From a virus (Duplodnaviria; Heunggongvirae; Uroviricota; Caudoviricetes), in the IMG/VR virus record IMGVR_UViG_2563366973_000012, positions 1 to 34,201 of that record: DNA of 34,201 nt; one strand, written 5' to 3'. Of this stretch, positions 1 through 34,201 are shown piece by piece; within the stretch, counting starts at the first letter, position 1, and every line of letters starts with the position of its first letter. Under the pieces are notes generated by a model. That model did not search any database, had not been told where the DNA came from, and was given only the letters and a program-made list of their open reading frames with translations. Made by a program: the position numbers and the translations under genes.

Positions 1-981
1 TTATAACGTCACTCCGCCTTTTAGTGGATTCAGAGCGACGGCATTTTGCAGATAGTCAGGCGCAAGGTGCGCATAGGCCATCGTCTGCTGAATGCTCGCA
101 TGTCCCAGAATCTGTTGCAGTGCGATTATATTGCCCCCATTCATCATGAAATGGCTTGCGAATGTATGTCGCAGGATGTGGGTTGCCTGATTGGGTGGTA
201 TATCAGGTTTCACTCTGCGTAAAATCCCGCAAAATTTCTCATAATCAACTTTGAATAATTTGGCGCTGGCCTCCTCTTTAACTTTTTTCTCCAGTTCCTC
301 AGAAATCGGCACGGTTCGCTTTTTACCGTTTTTGGTTTTCAGGAAGGTAACCCTGCAATTTGTAATCTGTGCTGGTTTTAGCGTGGCAACTTCCGTCCAT
401 CTTCCTCCAGTGCTCAGACATAAAAGCGCGACAAGTAAGTCATCACCAGCCAAAACATTTAACAGTTTTTCGATTTCTGCTTTTTCCAGGAACGTCATTT
501 CAGGGTTGGCCTCCGCCAGTGGCGGCAGTCCGTGAATTGGGTGTTGCCCGGAAAATTCATCCAATTGAATTAATTTTGTGAACATGCCGGATAATCGGTA
601 TATGTCACGGTTTATCGTTGCGGCACTGATACCATCACGTAGTCGCATGGAACGATAATCCATCAAAGCCCTTTTGCTCATCCTGCTCACTGGTATATCA
701 CCTATGCCGCTGATGGTTTTGAGTAGATGATTAAACTCTTTTGTTCCATGCTCGTGGTTTTGCCCGTGATATTTCCACCAGATGTCCAGCAACTCACTCA
801 AAGTCCGGCGGTCTGCTCGCTGGCCTCCCCATTCTTTCTGACTGGCATTGGCGATTGTGTATCGCTCAAATGCTAGTGCTTCAGCTTTTCTTTCGAATTT
901 CCTGCGGATGCGTTTTCCGTCGCGACCGCGAGGTCTAATGTCCACTTCATAGCGACCATCATCGAGCTTCTTAATTGCCAT
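1..981 (-). CDS. int: P2-type tyrosine integrase; window starts at its stop codon. Start placed at the internal Met (MAIKKLDDGRYEV) rather than the ORF-track start at 1011.
   Basis: Translation matches the recalled P2 Int N-terminus and ends with a tyrosine-recombinase C-terminal region (HxLRHTFAS...LGH...Y). Position and orientation are typical of a P2 prophage left end. Confidence 0.9.
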   Translation of the reverse strand: MAIKKLDDGRYEVDIRPRGRDGKRIRRKFERKAEALAFERYTIANASQKEWGGQRADRRTLSELLDIWWKYHGQNHEHGTKEFNHLLKTISGIGDIPVSRMSKRALMDYRSMRLRDGISAATINRDIYRLSGMFTKLIQLDEFSGQHPIHGLPPLAEANPEMTFLEKAEIEKLLNVLAGDDLLVALLCLSTGGRWTEVATLKPAQITNCRVTFLKTKNGKKRTVPISEELEKKVKEEASAKLFKVDYEKFCGILRRVKPDIPPNQATHILRHTFASHFMMNGGNIIALQQILGHASIQQTMAYAHLAPDYLQNAVALNPLKGGVTL

Positions 982-5781: not shown

Positions 5782-5897
5782 ACATCTGATTTAATTTGTT
5801 GCATAATAGTAAAATTGCTGTTTATCTGCATGTGTTAACTATTGATAATTATGTTGCTAATAATGTGTGCAAATTTATACTGAAAAAGGTGAAAACG
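5782..5897 (+). promoter_or_regulatory. AT-rich leader of the hotspot cargo gene with promoter-like hexamers
   Basis: TAAAAT at 5810-5815; TTGCTA-16 nt-TATACT at 5854-5881; RBS AAGGTG at 5886-5891. No experimental support; the hexamer choice is ambiguous. Confidence 0.25.
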
Positions 5898-7727
5898 ATG
5901 AATGATATCTTTGTTCTTACAAGGGAAGAGCTTGAAACACTAGATTATAGTGTTTTTATGCATATACCAGTTACATTTCATGCACATAAAATAAAAAAAT
6001 ATCTGGATGGGATTGCTGAATCATCAGAAAACCCCAAAGAGAAAAAATTAGCATCTCTTTTTGGTATGCTATATAGTTTCAATTTGCAAGTTGTTAACAA
6101 CACTCCATCATTTGAACCCCAAATGATTTGGGGTAATAAAAGATCAATATTGCCTGAAGATTTTGATGAGCAGGTGAATGACTGTCTTTTATATGTTTCT
6201 CAAAAAATAACCAATCCATTTTTGTTATCAAGAATATATGATGTTGTTTGGTGTAATAATCGGAAAAATAAAGACGTGGCAATTAAAGCAATTGATTCCT
6301 ATGCTGAAATGCTAAATATAGCAATTGAAAAGCTAATAATAAAAAACGAAAGCATGGATGAAAGTGATTTAAATTGCTTTATTTTTGCTCGTGATTATAT
6401 TGCTAGGGCTTTGCACATTAATAAAATGGTCTACCCTAGAAAATCAGAAGGAAACATGGCGATTAAAAATGCCATTCATTCTCTTTATAGTATTCAAAAT
6501 GAAAGATTAATCTTTGAAGGTTTCAATAATTTGACTTGGTTTATGGTGCGTGATTTTGATGGGTATAATCTGCAGTATGCGGAAAATGCTGAGAAGATGG
6601 CTGAGCAGCATAAAGATAAAAAATATTATGATGCTGTAAAATCACTTTATATGACAAGTGCAGTTATTTATGAAAAAAATGGTGAGTATGAACGTGCCAA
6701 GAGATGTAAACTGGCATCTGCAAATATTACTATTAAAGTTGCAACAGATCGACCTGATAATATGGGTAAGATCTCTTGGTTAAGAACAGCTATCTCTGAA
6801 TTAAGACAGTACGGTGGTGATAGCCAACAGATAGAAGATTTAAAGGAACAACTTGCTAATTTGAGAGAAGAAGTAAGGAGTGAATATGTCACTTTAAGCC
6901 ATTCTATTGATATTAGTGACTTGGTTGCTGAAAGTGAAAAAAAACTGACGGGGCGTTCTTTGCCCGATATATTCAAAGTTTTAATGAGTGAAACACCGAT
7001 TGAAAATATTGAAAGCATGAGGGAACAAGTTTTAAAATTATCAGAAAAAAGTTTATTCTCTAGTTTTGTTGGAACAGAAATTAATGATGAGAGTGGGCGT
7101 AAGATATATACAATCCCGCCGTTGGATAATAAAAAAGATATGAGTGATGATGTTGTTATTGATCAATATCTAAGAAATTTCGAGATTACTCATAAGATTT
7201 TTGTAAACGGTGTCTTTGAACCTGCTCGCTATGTACTTTCTCAAGAACATGGCTTGACGTTGTCAACATTCGTTAAATTGGTTACAACTAGTCCAATTGT
7301 CAAGCCGGAGTTTAGGGAGATTTTTAATTTGGGCTTTTACAAATTATGGCAGGGAGATTACATCAGTGCAGCTTATCTTTTAATACCACAAATGGAAGGT
7401 ATGGTTCGTTATTATTATGAGCTTAGCGGAAAGGATGCTACTAGATATTTGGATAAGGGATTAGAGGAGTCAACAAGTATTTCTCAGCTTCTAGATAAAT
7501 GCAGAGATGATTTGGAAAGTATCTTTTCTAAAAATCTTGTTTTGACTATCGATGTTCTTTTTAACAGAAAGAGTGGGGCAACCTTAAGACATAAATTAGC
7601 ACATGGTAATTTATATACTAATGCTTGTTACGATGAAACAACGACATATGCGTATTTTCATGAAAGGAGATCACTCAATAACTTCCATCGAGATCGGGTA
7701 ATAACATTTGAACAGATCGCTGAATAA
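5898..7727 (+). CDS. Hotspot cargo protein, 609 aa, unknown family; candidate anti-phage/abortive-infection effector with a C-terminal R-x4-H motif (RHKLAH)
   Basis: Long uninterrupted ORF with RBS AAGGTG 7 nt upstream of the ATG at 5898. Strongly AT-rich compared with the backbone. It sits where P2 carries tin/old. The last 6 codons and the stop lie inside the IS21 inverted repeat. Confidence 0.7.
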   Translation: MNDIFVLTREELETLDYSVFMHIPVTFHAHKIKKYLDGIAESSENPKEKKLASLFGMLYSFNLQVVNNTPSFEPQMIWGNKRSILPEDFDEQVNDCLLYVSQKITNPFLLSRIYDVVWCNNRKNKDVAIKAIDSYAEMLNIAIEKLIIKNESMDESDLNCFIFARDYIARALHINKMVYPRKSEGNMAIKNAIHSLYSIQNERLIFEGFNNLTWFMVRDFDGYNLQYAENAEKMAEQHKDKKYYDAVKSLYMTSAVIYEKNGEYERAKRCKLASANITIKVATDRPDNMGKISWLRTAISELRQYGGDSQQIEDLKEQLANLREEVRSEYVTLSHSIDISDLVAESEKKLTGRSLPDIFKVLMSETPIENIESMREQVLKLSEKSLFSSFVGTEINDESGRKIYTIPPLDNKKDMSDDVVIDQYLRNFEITHKIFVNGVFEPARYVLSQEHGLTLSTFVKLVTTSPIVKPEFREIFNLGFYKLWQGDYISAAYLLIPQMEGMVRYYYELSGKDATRYLDKGLEESTSISQLLDKCRDDLESIFSKNLVLTIDVLFNRKSGATLRHKLAHGNLYTNACYDETTTYAYFHERRSLNNFHRDRVITFEQIAE

Positions 7728-7841: not shown

Positions 7842-9383
7842 ATGCCAACAGTTCCAATTTCTATGAGAAAACTTAAAGAAATTCTTAGGCTTAAATACGG
7901 TGTTGGACTCAGCCATCGACAAATTGGTCGTAGTCTTGCAATCTCCCCTTCCGTTGTATCCAGATATGCTAATCGGGCGGCTCAACTTGGCATAAAGCAG
8001 TGGCCCTTACCTACAGGATGGGATGATACAAAACTAAAACATGCGTTCCTTCAGACCCAGGTTAAGATGAAGAAGCACTCTCTGCCTGACTGGGCTACAG
8101 TACACCGGGAACTGCGTAATAAATGCGTGACGCTGCAGCTACTCTGGGAAGAATACTGTGAGCGTAATCCAGGCGGTTTTTACAGCTATAACCATTACTG
8201 CCGGATGTACCGTGAATGGCTCAAAACCACTTCACCATCAATGCGTCAGGTACATAAAGCTGGCGAAAAACTTTTCGTTGATTACTGTGGACCTACCGTT
8301 GGCGTTACCGACCCTGAGACCGGAGAAATAAGAACTGCTCAGGTCATCGTAGCTGTTCTCGGGGCATCAAGTTACACATGGGCAGAGGCCACCTGGTCTC
8401 AGCAGCTTGAAGACTGGGTGATGAGTCATGTTCGCTGCTTCCAGTGGTTGGGTGGCGTTCCTGAACTTGTTGTTCCGGACAATCTGAAAAGCGCCACATC
8501 CAGGGCATGTAAGTATGATCCTGACGTTAACCCTACCTACCAGCAGATGCTTGAGCATTATAATGTCGCAGTTTTGCCTGCGCGGCCACGTAAACCGAAA
8601 GATAAAGCCAAAGCTGAAGTTGGCGTTCAGGTTGTTGAACGCTGGATCATGGCCCGAATCAGGCATGAGATCTTCTACAGCCTTGCATCGCTTAATCAGC
8701 GCATTCGGGAGTTGCTGGAAAGACTGAATAACAAAATAATGCAGAAGTTGGGTTATTCACGTGCAGAACTCTTCATCCAGCTTGATAAACCCGCACTGAA
8801 GCCTCTTCCTGAAGCCAGTTACAGTTACACCCTGGTGAAGAAAGTCAGAGTTCATGCCGATTACCACGTGGAAATCGACAAACATTACTACTCGGTTCCA
8901 TGTTCGCTGTTAGGCCAGCAACTGGAAGCATGGATCTCCGGAGAACTGGTAAGACTCTTCAATCAGGGGCAGGAGGTTGCTGTGCACCCGCGCAAGCGTA
9001 CTTATGGCTACAGTACCCGCAACGAGCACATGCCTGAAGCTCATCGACAGCATGCCACCTGGACGCCAGAGCGTCTTCTGGAATGGGCGGGGCACATAGG
9101 CAGTGAAACTCATAGTTATGTGCTTCATATACTGAACTCTCGTCCACATCCGGAACAAAGCTATCGCTTCTGCCTTGGACTCCTGAACCTTCATAAAAAA
9201 TACAGTAAAGCCAGACTTAATGCAGCATGTGCAAGAGCTCTGAAAACAAAGGTATGGCGTCTGTCAGGTATTAAATCGATCCTGGAAAAAGGTCTGGATA
9301 AACAACCTGTTCAGGATCCAAAACCAGATCTGTTATCCACGATGGAACACGAAAACGTACGCGGCAGTGAGTATTACCACTGA
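7842..9383 (+). CDS. istA: IS21-family transposase IstA (513 aa)
   Basis: N-terminal HTH-like region followed by an integrase/DDE-type core, immediately followed by istB; typical IS21 two-gene layout. Confidence 0.85.
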   Translation: MPTVPISMRKLKEILRLKYGVGLSHRQIGRSLAISPSVVSRYANRAAQLGIKQWPLPTGWDDTKLKHAFLQTQVKMKKHSLPDWATVHRELRNKCVTLQLLWEEYCERNPGGFYSYNHYCRMYREWLKTTSPSMRQVHKAGEKLFVDYCGPTVGVTDPETGEIRTAQVIVAVLGASSYTWAEATWSQQLEDWVMSHVRCFQWLGGVPELVVPDNLKSATSRACKYDPDVNPTYQQMLEHYNVAVLPARPRKPKDKAKAEVGVQVVERWIMARIRHEIFYSLASLNQRIRELLERLNNKIMQKLGYSRAELFIQLDKPALKPLPEASYSYTLVKKVRVHADYHVEIDKHYYSVPCSLLGQQLEAWISGELVRLFNQGQEVAVHPRKRTYGYSTRNEHMPEAHRQHATWTPERLLEWAGHIGSETHSYVLHILNSRPHPEQSYRFCLGLLNLHKKYSKARLNAACARALKTKVWRLSGIKSILEKGLDKQPVQDPKPDLLSTMEHENVRGSEYYH

Positions 9384-9394
9384 TACGGGATCCA

Positions 9395-10144
9395 ATGATG
9401 AATCATCTTTACGAACAACTGACCGCACTTAAACTCACCGGCTTCCGTGATGCGCTTAAAAAGCAACTTGCTCAACCGGGCACATACCAGGAGCTGGGCT
9501 TCGAAGAACGCCTGTCATTACTGACAGCAGAAGAACTAACCTGCCGTGAAAACAGGAAGGCAGAGCGTCTGATCAAACATGCACGGTTCAGACTTAATGC
9601 TGAGTTATCAAAGCTGGATTATCGTAACAATAGAGGGCTGGACAGGGCCCTCATCCGTTCACTCAGTCAGGGAAACTGGTTAACCCTGAAACAAAATATT
9701 TTACTGACCGGGGCCACCGGCAGCGGTAAAACGTTCCTGGCATGTGCACTTGGTCATAATGCCTGCCGACAGGGATACAAGGTCTACTATTATCGCCTTA
9801 AAGCGCTGATGGAACAGTGCTATCAGGGGCATGCTGATGGAAGATACAGCAAACTTTTGACCAGGCTGAATAATAGCGATCTGCTGCTTCTGGATGACTG
9901 GGGGCTGGAACCTCTCTCATCAGAACAGCGTAGCGACCTGCTGGAAATAGTGGATCTGATGTACCAACGAGGCTCAATCATCGTAGTGAGCCAGTTGCCG
10001 GTGGAAAACTGGTACAAAATGATCGGAGACTCCACACATGCGGATGCCATCCTAGATCGACTGGTTCATGGCAGTATCAAGATCGAACTTAAAGGAGAAT
10101 CAATGCGGAAAATACAATCTCCGTTGACCGAAGGAGATCAGTGA
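9395..10144 (+). CDS. istB: IS21-family helper ATPase IstB (249 aa)
   Basis: Walker A motif GATGSGKT and Walker B-like LLLLDDWG; directly downstream of istA. Confidence 0.85.
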   Translation: MMNHLYEQLTALKLTGFRDALKKQLAQPGTYQELGFEERLSLLTAEELTCRENRKAERLIKHARFRLNAELSKLDYRNNRGLDRALIRSLSQGNWLTLKQNILLTGATGSGKTFLACALGHNACRQGYKVYYYRLKALMEQCYQGHADGRYSKLLTRLNNSDLLLLDDWGLEPLSSEQRSDLLEIVDLMYQRGSIIVVSQLPVENWYKMIGDSTHADAILDRLVHGSIKIELKGESMRKIQSPLTEGDQ

Positions 10145-33200: not shown

Positions 33201-33419
33201 ATGTTTCATTGTCCTTTATGCCAGCATGCCGCACATGCGCGTACAAGCCGCTATATCACTGACACGACAAAAGAGCGTTATCACCAGTGTCAGAACGTGA
33301 ATTGCAGCGCCACGTTCATCACTTATGAGTCGGTACAGCGATACATCGTGAAGCCGGGAGAAGTCCACGCCGTGAGGCCGCACCCGTTGCCGTCAGGGCA
33401 GCAAATTATGTGGATGTAA
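33201..33419 (+). CDS. ogr: Late transcription activator Ogr (72 aa zinc-finger protein)
   Basis: Start at MFHCPLCQHAAHARTSRY (the recalled P2 Ogr N-terminus) with RBS GGAAGAGG upstream; C-x2-C-x22-C-x4-C zinc-finger spacing. The ORF-track start at 33138 is an unsupported extension. Confidence 0.85.
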   Translation: MFHCPLCQHAAHARTSRYITDTTKERYHQCQNVNCSATFITYESVQRYIVKPGEVHAVRPHPLPSGQQIMWM

Positions 33420-33423
33420 TTAC

Positions 33424-33460
33424 AAACAGAAAGCCCCTCAGTCGAGGGGCTTTCTGTTTT
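33424..33460. terminator. Bidirectional rho-independent terminator after ogr
   Basis: Perfect 16-bp stem AAACAGAAAGCCCCTC / GAGGGGCTTTCTGTTT with loop AGTC, followed by a T run and preceded by an A-rich stretch. Confidence 0.7.
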
Positions 33461-33559
33461 GGGGAATATTCTTCATTAAAAGTAGTGGATCACGTTTAAT
33501 AAACTATGTTTATCATATACTTAAAAGTAACTTTTTAAAGTTGGACAGGTTGGTGGAAA

Positions 33560-34201
33560 ATGGAAAAAGTTATAATTGAGCTTGATAATCGTTGGGAGTT
33601 AGCTGATTTCGCGGTCTTAACGAAAGAGTATTTGCAGCTATATGGTTTTTTTTATGGCCTAAAAGGAGGATCAAGAGGATATTCAACAATGCCTTGGGAG
33701 GGTGGGCACAGTGTAGTGAACTTTTTTAGAGGGGCTTACAGTGCGACTCCACCAGATTTACGTCCTGTAGTGAAAAAAATTCAGTATGCCTCTCCTGGCT
33801 TTATTGAATTGTCTGCTCTTATTGATATCTCTTGGCAGATTGCTGAGTTAGTTACTGCTGTTGGTGGAAGTATTCTGGCTGCCAACAAAGTTTACGATCA
33901 GGTGATGCGTACATATCGACAAAGAGAATGGGCAAAGTTGAAATCAGAGAAGCTGCGTATACAGAATCAAATTAAAGAGATTGAACTTGTTTCTGACGCA
34001 GTTAAATCACTTGAATCTGTGATGGCACTTAGTGAAGAACAACGTAAAAACTTGGTTCAACTATCGGGGGCAGATGAACTGGTTCAGTTAAAGATACTTT
34101 TGGCTGTTTACCGACGGTTATCTCCTCTTGTTGAGTTGCAAAACAGCGGGAAAGCTAATTTTTCTGCAGGGAAAAATAAAAATTTAAAAGCGTCCGATTA
34201 A
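33560..34201 (+). CDS. Hypothetical protein (213 aa), AT-rich, beyond the prophage right end; unknown function
   Basis: Complete ORF ending at the window edge; the helical, K/E-rich C-terminal half is suggestive of coiled coil. Not part of the P2 backbone. Confidence 0.45.
   Translation: MEKVIIELDNRWELADFAVLTKEYLQLYGFFYGLKGGSRGYSTMPWEGGHSVVNFFRGAYSATPPDLRPVVKKIQYASPGFIELSALIDISWQIAELVTAVGGSILAANKVYDQVMRTYRQREWAKLKSEKLRIQNQIKEIELVSDAVKSLESVMALSEEQRKNLVQLSGADELVQLKILLAVYRRLSPLVELQNSGKANFSAGKNKNLKASD

Follow-up and report, generated by a model that had tools for sequence, protein, structure and literature searches.

The window examined here, 34,201 nucleotides in full, closes on its right-hand side with ogr, which is the last conserved P2 core gene ahead of a cargo slot, followed by the ogr terminator and a single further reading frame, ORF213 (Table 1). 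Between the ogr stop codon and the ORF213 ATG lie 140 bp that contain no ORF, and no other ORF of at least 40 aa was detected on either strand at the window end. The predicted product of ORF213 has a mass of 23.96 kDa. An earlier sequence-only reading of this DNA had described a complete 213-aa frame, a perfect 16-bp-stem terminator after ogr, a shift to AT-rich sequence, and a K/E-rich, helical C-terminal half of the protein, and each of these features was reproduced here. G+C content is 38.7% over positions 33420 to 34201 and 39.7% within ORF213, against 51.3% in the remaining window. Lys and Glu together account for 19.6% of residues in the C-terminal half of the protein versus 11.3% in the N-terminal half, and the AlphaFold2 model places helices at residues 88-195.

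Table 1. Features at the right end of the window and along the ORF213 protein (nucleotide positions are those of the window)
Feature	Position	Strand	Basis or detail
ogr, late-gene activator	33201-33419	+	ogrK in RefSeq at the equivalent position; translation
ogr intrinsic terminator	33424-33459	+	RNAfold; perfect 16-bp stem, 4-nt loop, dG -28.3 kcal/mol
Inserted cargo unit (moron), ~760 bp, 38-39% G+C	33454-34201 plus 12 nt past the window	+	Alignment of slot variants
AT-rich 5' leader of the cargo gene	33461-33559	+	29.3% G+C
ORF213, 213 aa	33560-34201	+	ATG to TAA; the stop codon is the final three window bases
N-terminal alpha/beta core of ORF213			Invariant W12, Y28, P45-W46, G48-G49, S51, Y76-x-S78-P79-G80
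Hydrophobic helix of ORF213	residues ~86-108		
Basic helical bundle of ORF213	after the hydrophobic helix, up to residue 195		

The first 34 nt of the ogr terminator are identical to the P2 feature annotated "terminator." Our consensus promoter and terminator scan overlooked this structure because its T-run sits within the stem; the same scan detected no good sigma-70 promoter on the plus strand upstream of ORF213. A possible -10 element (TATACT, 33516-33521) and a Shine-Dalgarno-like GGTGGA ahead of the ORF213 ATG were read directly from the sequence, and in alignment the 3' 70 bp of the leader is partly conserved with the region upstream of a 72%-identical homologue. An Rfam scan of the region returned sub-threshold noise only, with nothing reaching the gathering score. 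Across the ORF213 stop codon, a 7-bp hairpin (GCGTCCG-ATTAAA-CGGACGC; 34186-34201 plus 8 nt past the window) is present and carries no T-run.

The end of the prophage was located in E. coli 504239, which matches positions 33420 to 34201 at 100% identity and in which the element, running from int through D, ogr, and ORF213, lies between cpxP on one side and fieF and pfkA on the other. A 47-bp exact direct repeat, GACACCATCCCTGTCTTCCCCCACATGATGTGGGGGTTTTTTTTATC, which includes the cpxP terminator hairpin, occurs just 3' of the cpxP stop codon and again 83 bp past the ORF213 stop codon. Because the second copy lies 3' of ORF213, attR is downstream and the gene is inside the prophage: the attR core occupies the 84-130 bp past the window end, adjoining fieF, and the true right end of the prophage is 130 bp past the window, which corrects the prophage boundary. 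The sequence-only reading had titled the gene as lying beyond the prophage right end, and this placement was wrong, since the core begins downstream of the ORF. That reading was right to see no att core in 33461-33559, and the attL/attR repeat that it had proposed as the way to settle the boundary is the 47-bp repeat described above. The sole strong terminator 3' of ORF213 is the duplicated cpxP terminator inside attR, ~100 bp on and on the same strand; we infer that ORF213 transcripts would reach this att-core terminator, insulating fieF.

Comparison across genera gave the same junction. Salmonella and E. coli sequences are 99.4% identical from the ogr stop codon through ORF213 and onward through the arm-type site and core, whereas past the core the figures are only 83% for fieF and 87% for pfkA. 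Since this break coincides with the end of the core, the junction between mobile and host DNA is the core end, and ORF213 has moved with the phage into Salmonella. The sequence-only reading had left two options for the gene, host or island DNA flanking attR or cargo just inside the prophage boundary; the position of the repeat and the Salmonella identity break refute the former, and the latter is correct. The sole 100% match labeled as a plasmid, the 80-kb linear record NZ_CP092913.1 (L018), carries fieF, pfkA, sbp, and cdh, and in it the same prophage end occupies the orthologous site; the record is evidently a piece of the Salmonella chromosome, and a plasmid-borne copy was rejected.

We reconstructed attP from the ORF-distal flank, the core, and the int-proximal flank, placed end to end. 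The resulting sequence is contiguous in Yersinia phage L-413C at 99.3% identity, and at least 80% of it is covered in 49 sequenced P2-like phage records, L-413C included. Free phages, L-413C among them, match the reconstructed attP from exactly CGATGTGG. The host element is a P2-like prophage with an L-413C-type int/att module, inserted at the terminator of cpxP, with fieF lying downstream.

The interval between ogr and attP is a variable cargo slot. In a three-way slot alignment, identity with P2 and with a prophage carrying alternative cargo stops at 33453, so that the cargo unit is bordered on the left by the ogr terminator and on the right by an integrase arm-type site, CGATGTGGACGCTATGTGGACAG. 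The slot is empty in, for example, 2013C-4538, where the ogr terminator is followed directly by the arm-type repeats CGATGTGGACGCTATGTGGACAG. In 377323_2f, the slot is filled by a different gene, which runs in the opposite direction and has a terminator of its own (L014:1770-2177, -); its 135-aa product has a signal-peptide-like N terminus, MATLKSIMAITTLIISLNAYA..., and no match to this protein was found in Pfam or PADLOC. In ESY003 (L016:2605-3974), an IS150 copy lies between ogr and ORF213, cutting off any read-through from ogr. Paired direct repeats, ATGTGGAC(N3)ATGTGGACA, flank the att core on both sides (L001:9795-9817 and L002:7650-7672), and those on the window side fall 12-35 nt past the window end. 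These repeats are probably integrase arm-type sites and would form the right border of the slot; we assign this putative role because they are duplicated on both arms and because of the binding pattern of P2 Int. With the ogr terminator on one side of the slot and the P-arm integrase sites on the other, ORF213 excises and transfers with the phage. Located between attL and attR, variably present in syntenic relatives, and atypical in composition, ORF213 is accessory cargo (a moron) within the att-delimited element, where it occupies a variable slot beside attP.

To survey occupancy of the site, we searched 5,426 complete E. coli genomes with a synthetic empty-site probe consisting of the end of cpxP, one core, and the start of fieF. 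The cpxP-fieF site is empty and uninterrupted, without ORF213, in 4,593/5,426 genomes, so ORF213 is not a core host gene; presence in prophage-free strains was the check that the sequence-only reading had put forward, with a conserved core host gene as the refuting outcome, and the counts contradict that outcome. ORF213 itself is present, intact and essentially identical, in 158 E. coli genomes (~3% of complete genomes), and ogr, ORF213, and fieF occur as one contiguous stretch in 159 records. About 833 E. coli genomes lack the empty site, such that approximately 1 in 5 prophages at this site carries ORF213. A tblastn search against 50,697 deposited phage genome records returned no copy of the gene, so the phages that carry it have not been seen as virions; the 49 sequenced phages with the same attP are all without it.

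A database search with the 213-aa protein, also advised in the sequence-only reading, returned a match to the PADLOC profile PD-T4-10_B (PDLC04024; E 1.3e-34), restricted to profile positions 139-346 of 353 (~60%). The PDLC04025 and PDLC04026 profiles also matched, and nothing significant was found in Pfam, PHROGs, or NCBIfam. PD-T4-10 was recovered by functional selection from E. coli ECOR65 and consists of two overlapping genes, A and B; PD-T4-10B is toxic and is neutralized by A, and together the two protect against T-even phages by abortive infection (Vassallo et al. 2022, PMC9519451). The homology of ORF213 extends over the last ~210 residues of PD-T4-10B, and ORF213 begins where this module begins, with its N terminus aligned to the start of other short forms. 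On the evidence of these alignments, ORF213 is the PD-T4-10B C-terminal module in stand-alone form.

When 1.84 billion representative proteins were searched with a profile, 794 clusters were recovered at E <=0.001; these fall into two architectures. In the short form (~205-240 aa), to which ORF213 belongs, the domain is the whole protein; the long form (~330-370 aa) carries a 135-aa N-terminal extension and accounts for ~37 of the best 150 clusters. The short, solo form is thus the commoner architecture. One protein (P0118) is 97% identical over 15% of ORF213 and is probably an assembly or gene-calling chimera; it is 171 aa long, carries RuvA Pfam domains, comes from a contig of 605 bp, and has 64 members. 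Short and long forms have in common W12, L14, Y28, P45, W46, G48, G49, S51, F55, Y76, S78, P79, G80, and R185, and ORF213 has every invariant residue of the long forms, among them W12, Y28, the PW-GG-S and Y-x-SPG motifs, and R185. AlphaFold2 modeled ORF213 with a pLDDT of 84 and a pTM of 0.82, and no fold relatives of the model were found among solved and viral structures.

The two architectures differ in the helix that follows the YASPG motif. Its median Kyte-Doolittle score is 1.91 in short forms (n = 220) versus 0.96 in long forms (n = 63), and scores of 1.6 or higher were reached by 76% of the former and 3% of the latter; the helix is therefore hydrophobic and transmembrane-like in the solo proteins, whereas that of the fused proteins is amphipathic. 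The helix of ORF213 scores 1.35, under the short-form median. With this score and a compact AlphaFold2 model, a true transmembrane anchor was not accepted as fact for ORF213.

The N-terminal extension of the long forms is Pfam DUF6575 (PF20215), which ORF213 lacks, as it lacks the overlapping upstream A gene of PD-T4-10. Long forms are preceded by an abutting or overlapping gene of ~115-147 aa, which at locus L017 matches PD-T4-10_A (E 5.8e-27). Among 52 species-representative loci, an upstream partner was present in 4/4 long forms, two identified by profile and two (L064 and L066) by position and a CPP...YR motif only; the A profile was built from three sequences and missed the divergent A genes of these last two loci. 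In contrast, no A-like ORF was found within 5 kb of any of the 42 full-length short forms in this set (0/42). No PD-T4-10_A homologue was detected among the 44 ORFs of the window, and the 140 bp upstream and 83 bp downstream of ORF213 leave no room for a partner gene. Both here and in the 42 loci, the short form is a single gene, unlike the two-gene organization of type II toxin-antitoxin systems.

The A gene accompanies DUF6575 and not the ORF213-type module. Upstream of, and overlapping, the genes for 407-aa DUF6575 proteins with a different C-terminal part lies an A-like gene as well, scoring 55-58 bits against the A protein of L017. Since A-like genes precede DUF6575 proteins with other C termini, the pair is A plus DUF6575. 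This arrangement suggests that an A-like gene and DUF6575 constitute a conserved, portable regulator pair, with the ORF213-type domain as one of several swappable C-terminal modules. Combinations of A-like genes and DUF6575 with C-terminal domains unrelated to PD-T4-10B were seen at L020:1567-3227 and L021:2561-4224 (proteins P0324 and P0337), and in a further DUF6575 protein (P0304) the C-terminal segment is reverse-transcriptase-like.

Short forms occur in varied surroundings. The 137 genes flanking 38 short-form loci revealed no shared partner family, with no Pfam family occurring more than twice, and many of these neighbors are ordinary metabolic genes. Homologues in Pseudomonas and Vibrio (45% identity) are integron cassettes: two of the twelve attC repeats in Pseudomonas sp. 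G34 enclose the gene as a single-gene cassette, and the Vibrio gene is a single-gene cassette between VCR-like repeats. Other copies lie at prophage ends, after tail-fiber or umuC genes; others adjoin a prophage repressor together with a SIR2-like DUF4917 gene, or Shedu and Schlafen-like genes. Scattered neighbors of short forms match PifA, AbiU, ThsB, GajA, and PD-Lambda-4_A, and 7/19 IMG/VR proviral matches lie at predicted provirus edges.

Closer relatives place the gene within the phage lineage. A 77%-identical orthologue directly follows ogr in a P2-like prophage of Kosakonia, where gpD is likewise 77% identical; the 72%-identical homologue comes after gpD, at an IMG/VR provirus edge. Against its orthologues, ORF213 has pN values of 0.13-0.26 and pS values of 0.72-0.84 (saturated), a substitution pattern indicating that the gene is under strong purifying selection. 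Given that these relatives follow ogr or gpD and that pN is far below pS, ORF213 is an old resident of this phage lineage.

The sequence-only reading had ventured that genes beside prophage ends are often related to defense or immunity. Homology to the PD-T4-10B toxin and the genomic context both strengthen this hunch, and the defense function is a putative one. The most likely reading, which we consider somewhat more probable than not, is that ORF213 is a streamlined, single-protein anti-phage factor. As such, it would be expressed by the lysogen and would act through abortive infection or superinfection exclusion, shielding the host and the prophage from unrelated phages; as with P2 old, tin, and fun(Z), protection of the lysogen against other phages is plausible. 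Because the A antitoxin goes with DUF6575 and not with the module, the module would most simply be the effector, as an interchangeable part. A solo toxin persists only if it is self-inhibited; the solo form would thus have to be held inactive within its own polypeptide until infection. In this it would parallel fused or single-chain toxin-antitoxin defense proteins such as CapRel, one polypeptide combining effector and self-inhibition with release by a phage cue; CapRel has no sequence or fold similarity to ORF213. The roles could also be swapped, as in CapRel-type fused systems, making DUF6575 the toxin and the module the sensor.

How such an effector would act is a matter for guesswork. The favored guess, prompted by the transmembrane-like helix after YASPG in solo forms, is that the protein, once triggered, would attack the inner membrane and halt growth; we regard this membrane-directed mechanism as weakly founded and unlikely. 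Against it, the ORF213 helix has the low score given above, and the model is compact and globular (pTM 0.82), with no obvious membrane protein character. A broader proposal, which we advance tentatively and think less probable than the anti-phage role itself, is that the 210-residue module, with a fold unseen in solved structures, acts autonomously as an abortive-infection effector and represents the minimal core of PD-T4-10; that A and DUF6575 are portable regulators serving unrelated effectors (the module, a 280-aa domain, and a reverse-transcriptase-like domain); and that the ogr-attP interval is a further, undescribed defense slot of P2-like phages.

Among other explanations, the one that survives best, although we judge it unlikely, is that ORF213 is a lysogenic-conversion gene unrelated to defense, with a role in stress, membrane physiology, or another fitness trait, and has an ancient domain in common with PD-T4-10B. 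Sequence and fold yield no biochemical activity, the neighborhoods are heterogeneous with many ordinary metabolic genes, and both integron cassettes and prophage morons carry varied functions. However, the sole characterized relative is a defense toxin, short forms recur beside defense genes and at prophage edges, and all invariant residues are common to short and long forms, suggesting the same activity. Mimicry by truncated defense proteins is a known anti-defense strategy, and a phage-borne, truncated copy of a host defense protein that has lost its regulatory parts might accordingly serve as a counter-defense decoy, poisoning or titrating host PD-T4-10-type systems and aiding infection or induction of the P2-like phage. 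We find this improbable: A pairs with DUF6575 instead, which leaves the module unable to titrate it; long forms are the minority (~37 among the best 150 clusters); and short forms are also found as integron cassettes, in chromosomal islets far from phage, and in taxa with no long form seen nearby.

Two further readings are very improbable. ORF213 directly adjoins the integrase arm-type sites, and its E. coli copies occur only with the same int/att module at the fieF site, as might be expected of a phage-lifecycle accessory for site-specific recombination, such as a factor acting at the adjacent attP; yet the 49 sequenced phages with the same attP and about four-fifths of prophages at the same site do without the gene, and homologues are found as integron cassettes and, in prophages of unrelated types, behind tail-fiber or umuC genes. 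That ORF213 is a decaying, nonfunctional fragment of PD-T4-10 would explain why only 60% of the PD-T4-10_B profile is covered and why the partner gene is missing, but the conservation data contradict it: 158 genomes carry an intact, essentially identical ORF, comparison with orthologues gives a pN far lower than pS, the N terminus aligns with short-form starts, and the short architecture is in the majority over hundreds of 50%-identity clusters. Finally, the chance that ORF213 is host or genomic-island DNA outside the prophage is negligible, for although its AT-rich composition differs from the phage backbone and the window stops at the gene with no att site visible inside, this reading is refuted by the att repeat 3' of the gene, by the absence of the gene from every empty site, and by the cross-genus identity break at the core.

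Taking ORF213 as a candidate anti-phage factor, we compared its setting with those of known systems. Several systems of Vassallo et al. 2022 are likewise carried by P2-like prophages; the two P2 hotspots described in that paper (PMC9519451) lie at prophage locations different from that of ORF213. Like P2 old, tin, and fun(Z) and the cargo of P2 hotspots (Rousset et al. 2022, PMC9122126; PMC13586616), ORF213 is a low-G+C, variably present accessory gene. The hotspots listed in the portions of PMC9519451, PMC9122126, and PMC13586616 available to us are gpA-gpQ, the tail-gene/fun locus, int-att, and int-primase, and the ogr-attP interval is absent from those lists. ORF213 lies outside all four, since its ogr-to-attP interval is at the end of the element away from int. 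Cassettes of chromosomal integrons are reported to include streamlined, single-gene variants of defense systems (Darracq et al. 2024, bioRxiv 10.1101/2024.07.02.601686), and the cassette-borne homologues of ORF213 fit this pattern of shortened multi-part systems, although the window copy differs from such cassettes in being a prophage moron. Text searches of integron-cassette studies found no tested member of the ORF213 family.

The solo form is the commoner architecture and occurs in ~3% of complete E. coli genomes, yet rule-based defense finders should skip ORF213-type genes, because both PD-T4-10 components are required. If the solo form is protective, PD-T4-10 would be separable into an effector module and a control pair of A and DUF6575; ORF213 would then be a compact, 23.96-kDa single-protein defense with an unsolved fold, open to study, and a further cargo slot beside attP would be added to the hotspot map of P2-like phages.

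The same prophage is also occupied at the classical gpA-gpQ hotspot. Positions 5796-7727 (+) of the window encode a 643-aa protein matching PADLOC PDC-S39 (E 1e-83), which carries DUF7380 and a weak match to DUF4209; this gene is likely a second defense cargo in the prophage. A PADLOC "DrmD" match in the same hotspot falls on an IstB protein and was set aside as a generic AAA match. This protein (249 aa; IstB, E 2e-67) belongs to an IS21-family element at positions 7842-10144 (+), together with a 513-aa IstA-like transposase that has rve and Mu-transposase C-terminal domains.
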